Origin: a virus | Lineage: Duplodnaviria; Heunggongvirae; Uroviricota; Caudoviricetes | Direction: 5' to 3' (one strand) | Length of the DNA stretch: 54,820 bases | Virus record (IMG/VR): IMGVR_UViG_2879731240_000008 | Shown here: positions 33,001 to 39,000 of the stretch, one piece after another | Position numbering within the stretch: the first letter of the stretch is position 1 | Layout: each line of letters opens with the position of its first letter | Position numbers: made by a program

Positions 33001-36000
33001 CGCCTCTGTGGGTTGAAAACGTCACCACGGCCTACGTGATCTGACAGGCCGTGCAGGAGGAACTGGCAGTGATACGTAAGCACTGCCGGTCGAAGGTGTT
33101 TTGACATGTATGCGAAACACCGGGGCAGCGTCTATCACACTTGCGTTGCTGACTTCTGCCAACTTGCGGCAAGCAAGGATAAAGAGTGCGACGGGCAGCC
33201 TCCTCAGTATGCTGAGTCCAGGCAGGTAAACGGGGAAGGTCAGCGACGGATGTTAAGGGGGCATGGCTCCGATGACGCGCTGGCTGGCGGAGCTTCCGTA
33301 GTAGTCCGCGATGGGGAAAGCCCATTACATGGCGAAGGGAAGCAGTTTGAATGTGTTTGCGACGTGAATTAACTGACTAACGAGGTGAAGACCTTTGATA
33401 ATCAGCGAAATGCAACGCAAGCTTGCCACATGGGCAGCCACCGATCCGTCCCTACGGATTCACGGCTGCTGCGTCTGATAACACAACCAGAATGGCTGGC
33501 TGAAGCGGCGCGGATCACGCTTTCATCAAAGGGGGCCCATACCCCCGGCGTTGATGGCGTGAACAAAACAATGCTACAGGCCAGACTGGCTGTTGAGCTG
33601 CAAATCCTCAGGGATGAATTACTCTCAGGCCACTACCAGCCCTTGCCCGCCAGACGGGTTTACATCCCTAAAAGCAACGGCAAACTGCGACCACTGGGTA
33701 TCCCGCGTTGCGGGATCGTATTGTTCAGCGGGCCATGCTGATGGCGATGGAGCCGATATGGGAGAGTGATTTTCATACGCTCTCATATGGCTTCCGGCCT
33801 GAGCGCAGTGTCCACCACGCGATCCGCACGGTGAAATTACAGCTCACAGACTGTGGTGAAACCCGGGGACGCTGGGTGATTGAAGGCGACCTGTCCAGTT
33901 ACTTCGACACCGTACATCATCGACTGCTGATGAAGGCTGTACGCCGCAGGATCAGTGACGCACGTTTCATGACTCTGCTGTGGAAAACCATCAAGGCGGG
34001 ACATATCGATGTCGGTCTCTTTCGGGCGGCCAGTGAAGGTGTGCCACAGGGCGGTGTTATATCGCCGCTATTATCGAACATCATGCTGAATGAGTTCGAT
34101 CAATACCTGCATGAGCGCTACCTGAGCGGGAAAGCCAGAAAAGATCGGTGGTACTGGAATAACAGTATCCAACGGGGCCGAAGTACGGCGGTCAGAGAAA
34201 ACTGGCAGTGGAAACCCGCGGTGGCGTACTGCCGCTATGCCGATGATTTTGTCCTCATCGTCAAAGGCACCAAAGCACAGGCGGAAGCCATCAGGGAGGA
34301 GTGTCGGGGTGTGCTCGAAGGCAGTCTGAAACTCAGGCTGAACATGGATAAGACTAAAATCACCCATGTTAATGACGGCTTTATCTTTCTGGGGCACAGG
34401 ATCATTCGCAAACGCAGTCGTTATGGCGAGATGCGAGTGGTCTCAACGATCCCGCAGGAGAAAGCCAGAAACTTCGCCGCATCGCTGACAGCACTGTTAT
34501 CAGGCAACTACAGTGAAAGCAAAGTCGATATGGCTGAACAACTCAACCGAAAACTGAAAGGCTGGGCCATGTTCTATCAGTTCGTTGATTTTAAGGCCAA
34601 AGTCTTCAGTTATATCGACCGTGTCGTGTTCTGGAAGCTGGCTCACTGGCTGGCCCGCAAATACCGTACAGGTATCGCTTCCCTGATGAGGTGGTGGTGT
34701 AAATCACCGAAACCGGGTCAGAGCAAAACGTGGGTTTTATTTGGTAAAACCAATCACGGCAAGCTCAGCGGCGAAATACTGTACCGGTTGGTGGGCAAGG
34801 CAAGAAGCTGTTCCGCTGGCGGCTACCCGAAGGTAATCCCTATCTGAGGACGGAGACCAGAAACACGTATACATCGCGCTTTACAGAAGTGGCAATGGCG
34901 TTCGCCAGCATTTAAATGGAGAGCCGGATGCGCTGAAAGGTGCACGTCCGGTTCGGGGAGGAGAGGCAGGGAAATAGTCCGACTACGCCCTGCCTCTTAC
35001 TCTACTCTGGACGGGTAAGCGCTGGGCGTACCTCGCCGTTGTTCTCGACCTGTTCGCAAGAAAACAGTGGGCTGGGCCATGTCGTTCTCGCCGGACAGCA
35101 GGCTCACCATGAAAGCGCTGGAAATGGCATGGGAAACCCGTGGTAAGCCCGGCGGGGTGATGTTCCACAGCGATCAGGGCAGTCATTATACGAGCAGGCA
35201 GTTCAGTTATTGTGGCGATACCAGATCAGACAGAGTATGAGCCGGCGCGGAAACTGCTGGGATAACAGCCCAATGGAACGCTTCTTCAGGAGTCTGAAGA
35301 ACGAATGGATGCGGTGGTGGGTTACGTAAGCTTCAGCGAGGCAGCTCACGCCATAACGGACTATATCGTTGGATATTACAGGCACTAAGACCGCACGAAT
35401 ATAACGGTGGGTTACCCAAACGAATCGGAATCGATACTGGAAAAACTCTAACTCGGTGGCCAGTTTTTGTTGACCACTTCAATGTGAAGGCGCTTCCCGA
35501 TTATCTTCCTGAGGCACTTTAGGTGGGTGAGAAAAGGGCTCGCTCTATCCGGATGAGCTAGTGGTGGTTGGTGCACAGGAGTCCCTTGCTGGACTTGAAC
35601 CAGCGACCTGGCGATTATGAGTCGCTCGCTCTGACCAACTGAGCTAAAGGGCCGGAGCAGAAACAGAATAATAACCATATGTCATCACATCTGCAAACTC
35701 ATCTGATCACCAGCACGTTTAACGTCCTGTGCCGTTTTTCAGGTATAAAAAAAAAAGCCGCATAAAGCGGGATGAAGCTCTTTCAAATGTCCATGTCTGC
35801 TATTCGCCTCGCGGTGCTTACACTTTGCGAAGGTACAAGAACTGCGCATTTTTACGTCAAAAAGCAGTAACTTTTTTCTCTAACCAAAAGCCATAAAGGT
35901 TTGTTACAAAATAAATTCTGCCACCTAATTAGCCAATGCTCAATCGTTTTCACAGGTTCTTAAACTCCATTTCGGGTGTGCATCATTCAGCAGTGTCAGC

Positions 36001-39000
36001 CATTCTGCATTTGGTATCCCCCGCCCCTCATACCGTTGCCGATGGACGCTAATCAAGAACCTGGATGCTATTGCCAGCACCTCACTGATGAACCGATGCA
36101 ATACATAACGCCTCTGCAGGTCAGTACAATGCGCCAGCCGAGCTCTTTTGCTTACCGTTAATCATATCCCGCCCCAAGTTCAGACTTGACAGAGCGCCTC
36201 GTTAATTGCTATCAACATCAGGTTAAACATATTCCCCGTCTTACCGCCACTGAAGTGGTCAACAAAAACTGGCCACCGAGTTAGAGTTTTTCCAGTATCG
36301 ATTTTCCGATTCGTTTGGGGGTAACCCACCGTTATATTCGTGCGGTCTTAGTGCACTGTAATATCCAACGATATAGTCCGTTATGGCGTGAGCTGCCTCG
36401 CTGAAGCTTACGTAACCCACCACCGGCATCCATTCGTTCTTCAGACTCCTGAAGAAGCGTTCCATTGGGCTGTTATCCCAGCAGTTTCCGCGCCGGCTCA
36501 TACTCTGTCTGATCTGGTATCGCCACAATAACTGCCGGAACTGCCTGCTCGTATAATGACTGCCCTGATCGCTGTGGAACATCACCCCGCCGGGCTTACC
36601 ACGGGTTTCCCATGCCATTTCCAGCGCTTTCATGGTGAGCCTGCTGTCCGGCGAGAACGACATGGCCCAGCCCACTGGTTTTCTTGCGAACAGGTCGAGA
36701 ACAACGGCGAGGTACGCCCAGCGCTTACCCGTCCAGATATAGGTCACATCACCGCACCACACCTGATTTGGCTCGGTCACGGCGAACTGCCTTTCAAGGT
36801 AGTTAGGGATAGCATACCTGTACGGTATTTGCGGGCCAGCCAGTGAGCCAGCTTCCAGAACACGACACGGTCGATATAACTGAAGACTTTGGCCTTAAAA
36901 TCAACGAACTGATAGAACATGGCCCAGCCTTTCAGTTTTCGGTTGAGTTGTTCAGCCATATCGACTTTGCTTTCACTGTAGTTGCCTGATAACAGTGCTT
37001 CAGCGATGCGGCGACAGCTGACCAGCCCCAGCTCATTTCATGAGCCTGCCAGCAAGCCATGCGCCTCCCATCTGGTAGCCTCTCCGGGTTGCCATTGTGG
37101 CGATGCTTCTTGCTCATTCAGGCCGAACCGTGGCTGATGCCAAGCTCAAGTACCTGCGTAATGCCCGTCTGCCGTCTGCACCTCAGCTTACAGGACGGTT
37201 TTTCCACATAATCGCCTCTGAGAGTACCGAATGCAACACAGAGTGTTTGCTTACCACATTATATCTGATATCCCGCATTTCCCGATTATCAGAGACTGTT
37301 CAGTCAAGATCATCGCGGTAGAAGCCTTTTTTAATATTTCATTCTCCATTTCAATGCGTTGTAGTCTTTTTCCACTGAGCTCACGGATTTCAATTTGTTC
37401 GGGTAATGGGGGCGCATCACCCTTTTTGCCATTTTTTCATGGCCCGACACCGCACTGGTTTTCTTGCGAACAGGTCGAGAACAACGGCGAGGTACGCCCA
37501 GCGCTTACCCGTCCAGATATAGGTCACATCACCGCACCACACCTGATTTGGCTCGGTCACGGCGAACTGCCTTTCAAGGTAGTTAGGGATAGCAACATGT
37601 TCATGACCACCACGTTTATACCGGTGAGTCGGCTGCTGACAGCTGACCAGCCCCAGCTCTTTCATGAGCCTGCCAGCAAGCCAGCGTCCCATCTGGTAGC
37701 CTCTCCGGGTTGCCATTGTGGCGATGCTTCTTGCTCCGGCCGAACCGTGGCTGATGCCATGTAGCTCAAGTACCTGACTGCGTAATACAGCCCGTCTGCC
37801 GTCTGGTTTTTCAGGACGGTTTTTCCAGTATCTGTAGCTGCTGCGATGAACCCCGAACACATGGCAGAGTGTGACCACAGGATAATGCGCTCTGAGTTTC
37901 CCGATTATCGAGAACTGTTCAGGGAGTCTGACATCAAGAGCGCGGTAGCCTTTTTTAATATTTCATTCTCCATTTCAATGCGTTGTAGCTTTTTCCTGAG
38001 CTCACGGATTTCAATTTGTTCCGGGGTAATGGGGGAGGCTTTTGGTGTTTTGCCCTGACGCTCATCACGCAGTTGTTTGACCCATCTTGTCATTGTGGAA
38101 AGGCCAACATCCATAGCTTTGGCGGCATCTGCCACCGTGTATTTCTGGTCAACAACCAGTTGAGCGGATTCGCGTTTAAACTCTGCGCTAAAATTTCTTT
38201 TTTTCATTGGAGCACCTGTGTTGTTCTGAGGTGAGCATATCACCTCTGTTCAGGTGGCCAAATTCAGTGTGCCACTTCAAAAGCTGAAAATGATGCTCTT
38301 CGGCGCAAGCTTGATAATGGTGGTCGGGTGCTCGTCAAAGGAAAATGCCCTGTGCCATCCTCAGCCGAAACCTCCAGCGCCTCCGGCATGGGCAATGATG
38401 CCACCGTCGAACTCTCTCCAGTTGCTGGACGAAACGTTCTCGGTATCCGGGACGGAATCATCAGCGACCAGACAGCATTGAGAATGCTTCAGGAGTACAT
38501 CAGGATCCAATGCCTTGGGGGGTAGCGGTAATTTTACTCATTATCCTTCAAATCAGATTCTGTTGTCAGAGGAATGGGGGACGCTGGATTCGCAAGAGCT
38601 TTTTATGGGCAGTTTAGCTAAAAAAAGGCAACACGAAGCTAAAACTACCAACATAAAGTGCTGACCAGCTAGCAGCTGAAATCAGACTCACTGTATACAC
38701 TTTCACTGGATGAAGTTGCAACATTCCTGCCACCAAAGGAGCAATGTAACGCAGCACGGCGATAAAGCGCGAAGTGAAAAGTATTGACACAGAGTTATTT
38801 TGCAACTGAAGGCGAACCCGTTCTATTGTATTGGAACGGCTCGATATTATACATGCAAGTTGAGGGATATGCCCAATTATTATACCAAGATGGTAATTAA
38901 CGATAGTACCGCACCATGCGCCACTCATGACCGTGATTCCAGCTTCCCATGGTGAAAGAGTCGTCTTGCTGACTGTAATTACAGTGGCCATCATAATTGA

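Follow-up and report, generated by a model that had tools for sequence, protein, structure and literature searches.

We analysed a window of 54,820 nucleotides (nt) of DNA, the whole of the Caudoviricetes record IMGVR_UViG_2879731240_000008 of IMG/VR, in which two inverted copies of the insertion sequence (IS) IS911, here called IS911-A and IS911-B, join the remnants of two defective lambdoid prophages. Positions 32940-39101 of the window are identical to positions 3685559-3691720 of CP020086.1, the record of Shigella flexneri serotype 1a strain 670 from China (PMC9455713). The outer frame of this joint is common to several S. flexneri strains. Its interior, where IS911-A with its group II intron is followed by a damaged tRNA region and by stacked IS911 and intron fragments, carries features present in that one record only, and our comparisons suggest, with a probability of roughly three in four, that it is a low-quality consensus or mis-assembled patch at about 32.7-37.45 kb between the inverted repeats. 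An earlier note on this DNA had instead read the interval as the result of repeated IS911 insertion and of recombination between two related prophages.

The region 31,900-38,400 was mapped against three references, namely an IS911 copy of an E. coli RefSeq genome, the intron of the window itself and orthologous loci, the S. flexneri loci being fetched via shared proteins. tRNAs were called with ARAGORN and Rfam, and protein domains with Pfam. Among the comparison loci, L015 is S. flexneri FDAARGOS_690 (CP055138.1), and L016 (CP026788.1), L017 (CP026810.1), L018 (CP049606.1), L020 (CP097831.1) and L022 (CP044155.1) are likewise from S. flexneri. Relatives at the same locus were CP055138.1, CP033510.1 (2016AM-0877), CP182555.1, CP026788.1, the draft AFHA01000019.1 and the IMG/VR UViG 2648501245_000003.

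The interior of the joint is private to one record

The features of the locus are the following, IRL and IRR being the left and right terminal inverted repeats of IS911, RT reverse transcriptase and ORF open reading frame.

31985-35481, plus strand: IS911-A, split at IS911 nt 762/763 by a group II intron
31985-32008: IRL of IS911-A, an exact 24-nt match
31985-32745, plus strand: left part of IS911-A, IS911 nt 1-762, orfA present (blast to the IS911 reference and to L015)
32746-35005, plus strand: group II intron E.c.I4 at its IS911 homing site, 2,260 bp against 2,271 bp in reference copies
35006-35481, plus strand: right part of IS911-A, nt 763-1249, ending in IRR, with 6 deletions (11 nt) and no substitutions
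35458-35481: IRR of IS911-A, an exact 24-nt match
35484-35542, unstranded: 59-bp interior scrap of IS600, IS600 nt about 1118-1044 with deletions
35542-35567, minus strand: tRNA-Arg(TCT), 5' 26 nt only (alignment to 28423-28499 and to E. coli FDAARGOS_944)
35568-35577: 8-nt insertion after the tRNA-Ile2 copy
35578-35653, minus strand: tRNA of the Ile2 type, anticodon CAT (ARAGORN, Rfam, alignment and fold)
35654-36250, minus strand: remnant of a DUF1133 gene (Q-like antiterminator region) with downstream spacer (Pfam and annotated E. coli and Shigella matches)
36251-38279, minus strand: IS911-B, 2,029 bp, with IRR at 36251 and IRL ending at 38279
36251-36814, minus strand: IRR side of IS911-B, nt 1249-686, clean, 99.8% identical to the IS911 reference
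36805-37014, minus strand: 210-bp fragment of the E.c.I4 RT/maturase ORF, intron nt 1729-1939, with no intron ends and off the homing site
37013-37412, minus strand: garbled second IS911 copy, nt 642-245, 79.6% identical to the window's own IS911
up to 37437, minus strand: about 25-45 nt of noisy IS911 sequence adjoining the garbled copy
37438-38279, minus strand: IRL side of IS911-B, nt 839-1, with orfA intact and the A6G motif present
38256-38279: IRL of IS911-B, an exact 24-nt match
38280-38525, plus strand: 3' part of Rz from nt 226 (offset against the intact Rz of L018)
38290-38481, plus strand: intact Rz1, embedded in Rz (Pfam Rz1 and Phage_lysis; gene call of the source record)

All that the earlier note had described at the level of sequence is present where it was placed, far beyond chance. 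There is an intron-bearing IS911 to the left, with a 2,260-bp intron and an IRR that ends at 35481; a near-duplicate of the tRNA-Ile2/Arg region, 35542-35752 matching 28474-28671; a truncated Arg tRNA, of which just the 5' end is left; a following stretch with no ORF longer than 61 amino acids (aa) at 35654-36250; a block at 36251-38279 in which an orfB C-terminal piece, an RT fragment, a diverged remnant and an intact orfA are stacked; and an IS911 end at the Rz truncation, where Rz resumes directly after the IRL. The possibility, raised in the note as a check, that the stretch without a long ORF comes from the Q region of another prophage also proved right, since it is the remnant of a DUF1133 Q-region gene of the second prophage. 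Two descriptions had to be amended. A tRNA copy does follow IS911-A, and the IS600 scrap that precedes the Arg stump had been overlooked; an insertion does accompany the Ile2 tRNA, and its place is between the Ile and Arg genes, where the acceptor stem ends on its 3' side.

The history built on these observations fared differently. Six inner junctions, which include 35481/35482, 35541/35542, about 36810, about 37014 and about 37438, had no occurrence in the fetched S. flexneri loci, and scans for them in GTDB representative genomes, IMG/VR and JGI metagenomes yielded no matches, while a clean outer junction, which served as a positive control, was found in IMG/VR. Coverage of the block stayed below 80% in every complete E. 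coli genome. When about 20 ORF variants specific to the interval were looked up exactly in a collection of 15 billion proteins, only a 53-aa DUF1133 scrap was present, on a single contig that is CP020086.1 itself, and neither the junction scans nor the exact ORF look-ups disclosed a sibling assembly apart from the source record. The features restricted to CP020086.1 are the single-base deletions in the intron and in the right arm of IS911-A, the IS600 scrap, the damaged tRNAs, the wrecked DUF1133 gene and a 780-bp insert in IS911-B. Repeated insertions as the origin of the stacked fragments and of the degraded tRNA are not supported, the inner junctions being absent from all other genomes examined and the equivalent IS911 of the relatives being clean and single. 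For recognition of the strain 670 feature in other isolates we selected the 30-mers TTGTTGACCACTTCAATGTGAAGGCGCTTC, TAGTGGTGGTTGGTGCACAGGAGTCCCTTG, CAAGGTAGTTAGGGATAGCATACCTGTACG and TTCAGCGATGCGGCGACAGCTGACCAGCCC.

The differences are mostly deletions and do not extend into the flanks

Pairwise alignments of the interior and of control sequences gave the following counts.

IS911-A with its intron, against FDAARGOS_690: 0 substitutions and 15 gap openings, in each of which the window lacks sequence, most being CC to C or within short runs
IS911-A with its intron, against the copy of E. coli E24377A: 18 substitutions and 16 gaps, each a deletion in the window
DUF1133-tRNA segment (709 bp), window against clean copies: 15 substitutions and 26 gap openings (101 nt)
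DUF1133-tRNA segment (736 bp), E. coli FDAARGOS_944 against S. flexneri: 3 substitutions and 0 gaps
Naturally 18%-diverged homologue of the DUF1133-tRNA segment: 120 substitutions and 10 gap openings
"Divergent" IS911 of the block, against the window's own IS911: 33 substitutions and 22 gap openings
Real IS911 relatives of 93-97% identity: 10-26 substitutions and 0-1 gap openings

All 15 deletions in IS911-A and its intron fall within short homopolymers or GC-rich repeats, and a deletion-only pattern in short homopolymers resembles the residual errors of long-read consensus sequences. The density of this noise climbs from about 32.8 kb to 36.2 kb and is zero at 36.25 kb; a second noisy stretch occupies 36.8-37.45 kb. 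Outside, the window differs from its relatives by 2 single-nucleotide polymorphisms (SNPs) and 2 insertions or deletions (indels) in 13 kb to the left of 31.1 kb, and by no indel in 8.7 kb to the right of 37.45 kb. With flanks so similar (99.97%), a divergence of 9-20% in situ cannot have arisen by ordinary mutation, and the private, indel-rich differences of the interior are irreconcilable with such flanks, so that the idea of stacked insertions is not supported.

The reading in which everything is real would have successive IS911 insertions, illegitimate recombination and deletions build the block, with the tRNA and DUF1133 pieces as old, decayed pseudogenes of a second prophage. It suits the biology of Shigella, in whose genomes IS-driven pseudogenes are abundant, and it accords with outer joints that are genuine and have no target-site duplications, with genuine rearrangements at the locus in other strains and with an intron fragment whose junctions coincide with short similarities of the kind expected from illegitimate recombination. 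We consider it unlikely all the same. The decayed copies have no counterpart elsewhere, whereas five S. flexneri loci share the intact 736-bp DUF1133-tRNA segment at 100% identity; with flanks that differ by about 2 SNPs in 13 kb, decay of this extent in place is impossible on rate; the changes are dominated by indels, one-sided and linked to homopolymers, unlike natural divergence; and the "divergent" IS is nearest to the window's own IS911. Import of already decayed DUF1133 and tRNA sequences from a diverged paralogue was also considered and rejected, no donor being present in 5,426 E. coli genomes, in a phage collection or among the Shigella loci. The best identity of that piece was about 91% in partial alignments and about 85% over the whole, and the match was always the clean orthologue. 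Far less probable still is a real interior produced by a localised burst of mostly indel mutation, with template-switch patching, at the quasi-palindrome that the IS911 inverted repeats form; under it, the RT of the group II intron might have been involved in break repair.

A probable corrupted patch between inverted repeats

An assembly error, the scenario which the earlier note had itself set against its reading, most likely explains the interior better than stacked insertions do. The setting is favourable to such an error, because inverted repeats of 1.25-3.5 kb here enclose a short segment whose components (the prophage tRNA region, the intron, IS600 and IS911) have further copies in the genome. 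If the two inverted IS911 copies recombined, the spacer between them would be flipped, and a crossover within IS911 nt 1-762 would in addition transfer the intron between the copies. The culture may have mixed such isomers, and reads would then conflict exactly at the garbled stretch, including the intron piece in IS911-B; garbled sequence of this kind could result when a long-read consensus is built from such a mixture or at very low coverage.

Several points weigh against a corrupted patch, the evidence for which is indirect. Clean stretches lie inside the patch, namely both parts of IS911-B and the intron fragment (98.6-99.5% identity), and these are not obviously predicted by a simple model of low coverage. 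The comparison of loci also shows that the region is truly polymorphic in structure among strains (L020, L022, L016), and the large deletions relative to FDAARGOS_690, of the primase gene, most of IS600, the holin stump, the Gly and Thr tRNAs and two-thirds of the Arg tRNA, could be real in strain 670, since L020 shows true deletions at the locus. A last point concerns the DnaC-like gene (31068-31964, minus strand), where a run of five C at 31151-31155 is one C short by comparison with all complete S. flexneri genomes examined, the C deletion at 31155 giving a 298-aa DnaC-like product with an altered C-terminus. This product was also present on eight independent Logan contigs (runs SRR315557xx-SRR315558xx), which is not decisive. 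As a lineage marker the frameshift at 31155 was discarded as unreliable, some Logan contigs bearing other homopolymer deletions; it may instead be a sequencing error that recurs.

The outer frame is a prophage joint common to S. flexneri strains

The junction between the DnaC-like gene and the IRL is common to L012, L014, L015, L016 and L023, that between DUF1133 and the IRR to L012, L014, L015, L020, L023 and L026, and that between the IRL and Rz to L012, L014, L022 and L023. All four outer and intron junction types were found in other S. flexneri assemblies, the outer ones in at least six. The relatives have flanks 99.9% or more identical to those of the window and keep, between their inverted IS911 copies, a Toprim primase gene, IS600, a holin stump, tRNA-Gly, -Thr, -Arg and -Ile2 and an intact 140-aa DUF1133 gene, in this order; in contrast to the window, their IS911-B is a plain single element of 1,249 bp. 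In FDAARGOS_690, IS911-A carries the same intron with an RT intact at 502 aa, and the distance between the outer ends of IS911-A and IS911-B is about 9.75 kb (an estimate, as the locus ends inside IS911-B) against 6.3 kb in the window.

Unlike a simple IS911 insertion, neither copy in the window is flanked by a 3-bp target duplication, the flanks being GTC/ATG for IS911-A and CAC/AAA for IS911-B. Since there is no target duplication and each copy joins unrelated genes, both are recombination joints, and they link the remnants of two defective lambdoid prophages: on the left the replication module (DnaC-like and DnaB genes) of one, on the right the truncated Rz, Rz1, DedA-like and terminase genes of a related one. 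Rearrangement here is ongoing among strains, and others show variants of the arrangement. In L017 and L018 the prophage runs uninterrupted from the DnaC-like gene to the portal gene; in L022 (AR-0424) a single IS911 joins Rz1 directly to the DnaC-like gene; L016 has IS911-B flipped and has no Rz remnant or DedA-like gene; and L020 has lost the primase gene. Of the earlier proposal of repeated IS911 insertion and recombination between related prophages, the second half therefore stands, on the missing target duplications and the variability of the locus among strains, and the stacked insertions do not. The outer frame is already known. The joint is a scar of transposition, retrohoming and homologous recombination between IS copies, and nothing at it has a cellular function.

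IS911-A and its group II intron

IS911 belongs to the IS3 family and was first described in Shigella dysenteriae. Exact 24-nt terminal repeats were found at 31985, 35458-35481, 36251 and 38256-38279, together with the Pfam domains HTH_Tnp_1 (orfA) and rve/DDE (orfB) and the A6G frameshift motif in the IRL-side part of IS911-B, and identity to RefSeq-annotated IS911 copies is 98-99.8%. IS911-A measures 1,237 bp plus the intron, 12 nt short, against a unit length of about 1,250 bp. Its frameshift motif (32308-32313) reads A5G and not A6G, one A being deleted; if real, this change would abolish normal OrfAB production from copy A.

The intron is E.c.I4, which homes into IS3-family transposase genes, those of IS629, IS911, ISEc16 and ISEc31 (PMC3522654). 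In the window it has retrohomed into such a specific site in the transposase gene; its position in IS911 orfB is that of both E.c.I4-8 of E. coli E24377A and the copy of S. flexneri FDAARGOS_690, and both of its junction 30-mers are identical to theirs. It begins with GTGTG, in agreement with the GUGYG 5' end of group II introns, and its catalytic RNA 3' domains are recognised by the Rfam model Intron_gpII (RF00029; 64.9 bits) at 34919-35005, the 3' end of the intron. Relative to L015 it shows no substitutions and nine deletion events (11 nt). Single-base deletions at about 33462, 33702 and 34793 break the 502-aa RT/maturase ORF of L015 into pieces of 118 aa and 379 aa with an altered C-terminus, the 379-aa ORF carrying the RVT_1 and GIIM domains of Pfam. 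The window differs further in having a second, internal 210-bp intron fragment away from any homing site. No comparison for this locus came from other IS911::E.c.I4 copies, such as that of S. flexneri 1a 0228, which are situated at unrelated loci.

Between the IS911 copies

IS911-A and IS911-B are separated by 769 bp (35482-36250). The first approximately 57 bp were considered as the terminus of another IS and this was rejected, the sequence being an internal IS600 scrap, which is collinear with the IS600 present at the same position in related strains.

The tRNA copy at 35578-35653 is still recognised as a cloverleaf by tRNA models and scores 59.8 bits with Rfam (threshold 29) against 70.5 bits for the first copy. 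ARAGORN labels it tRNA-Met(CAT), the Ile2 identity being taken from how RefSeq annotates the orthologue. The sequence of its 3' acceptor strand is ...AAGGGACUCC, that of the first copy ...AAGGGCCACCA, a change explained by the 8-nt insertion (GCACAGGA) plus one substitution. The acceptor stem has lost pair 2-71 (a G2-A71 mismatch), no CCA is encoded, and the predicted fold has -27.7 kcal/mol as compared with -34.8 kcal/mol for the first copy.

The following 35654-36250 matches E. coli and Shigella sequences annotated as DUF1133 plus tRNA-Ile/Arg. Pfam recognises DUF1133 with E = 2.9e-10, and the 53-aa ORF at 35940-36101 (minus strand), all that survives of the gene as an ORF, covers positions 105-154 of profile PF06576. 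A complete DUF1133 ORF would have about 140-185 aa; here many frameshifting indels are found relative to the 140-aa gene of the relatives. The 53-aa scrap has the RefSeq accession WP_354702570.1 and is named "DUF1133 family protein [Shigella flexneri]".

Gene order and sequences are those of the lambdoid Q-tRNA-lysis module as seen in E. coli FDAARGOS_944, which comprises DUF1133/Q, tRNA-Ile2-Arg-Thr-Gly, holin, lysozyme, Rz/Rz1, DedA-like and terminase genes, and to which the clean Shigella DUF1133-tRNA piece is 99.6% identical over 736 bp. The ileZ-argN-argO region of Stx phages is a further example of the module. The window departs from it in that DUF1133 is reduced to its 3' half and the tRNAs to Ile2 plus 26 nt of Arg, in that these remnants are inverted relative to the truncated Rz, DedA-like and terminase genes, and in that the holin, the lysozyme and 225 nt at the 5' end of Rz are missing. 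In the first tRNA array of the window the fourth tRNA (28267-28341, minus strand) is a 75-nt tRNA-Gly(TCC), as in FDAARGOS_944, and other E. coli prophages have at that position a 71-nt gene annotated as tRNA-Val.

IS911-B and the Rz/Rz1 joint

IS911-B has 2,029 bp instead of the 1,249 bp of a single element. The additional 780 bp lie inside the element and were seen in no other genome; they consist of the intron fragment, the garbled IS911 sequence and a duplication of 147-154 bp. The intron homing site is empty in the IRR-side part (36737/36738). A tandem IS911 dimer or circle junction was rejected as a source of the block, there being no IRR-IRL abutment within it, and so was a 5'-truncated retrohoming product, the fragment having neither intron end and lying at IS911 nt 686/642 instead of 762/763. 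The garbled IS911 is less similar to ISEc52 and to another, unnamed IS3-family relative than to the window's IS911, and an origin from a distinct IS3-family element such as these was rejected. The gap lengths of the garbled copy do not come in multiples of three, and between real relatives there are hardly any differences other than substitutions.

The extra sequence might also be thought of as an error-rich complementary DNA (cDNA) patch, laid down when the intron RT switched templates on IS911 and intron RNAs while repairing a break between the inverted copies. In its favour, both the intron fragment and the garbled IS911 read in the sense direction of IS911-B, there are short similarities at the junctions, and an RT-encoding intron is 1.3 kb away. 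Yet this mechanism does not predict the like noise in the DUF1133/tRNA DNA and in the right arm of IS911-A, the fragment keeps neither intron end and sits off the homing site, and the RT ORF in CP020086.1 is itself broken. Divergence of 20% with 22 gaps in 400 bp is, moreover, far above the error rates of reverse transcriptases. We consider a cDNA patch very improbable.

To the right, Rz and Rz1 belong to the late end of the second prophage and are followed by a DedA-like gene and then the terminase genes.

Other features of the window

The window carries an ipaH-type E3 ligase gene, IS600 and an IS2-like element in addition to IS911. A 587-aa ORF at 1060-2823 (plus strand) has LRR_TTSS and NEL domains and thus encodes an IpaH-type type III effector E3 ligase; lying at the far end of the first prophage, it marks a Shigella ipaH prophage island. 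IS600 is present twice, each copy being 1,264 bp long. The one at 24865-26128 truncates the Rz gene of the first prophage at its 3' end and links it to lambda-like terminase and portal genes, and the one at 47779-49042 abuts a Mu-type transposase gene (49040-50674, minus strand). An IS2-like element of the IS3 family at 40750-42023 (plus strand) has a 136-aa helix-turn-helix orfA and a 301-aa rve orfB and interrupts the Terminase_3 large subunit gene of the second prophage (39928-40719, resuming after about 42008). In the head-gene region of that prophage, the 7-nt tandem unit TGGTGGC at 42476 has one copy fewer than in L018.

Implications

The practical value of these results is that of a data-quality warning: a "complete" genome record appears to hold a corrupted patch of about 5 kb, which has already yielded the RefSeq protein WP_354702570.1 and apparent pseudogenes. 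Scans for degraded tRNAs or for IS or intron fragments would tally these as evolutionary events, probably wrongly. If the interior were real after all, it would represent ordinary IS-driven prophage decay. The biological weight is small in any case, the real part of the locus being textbook decay of a Shigella genome.

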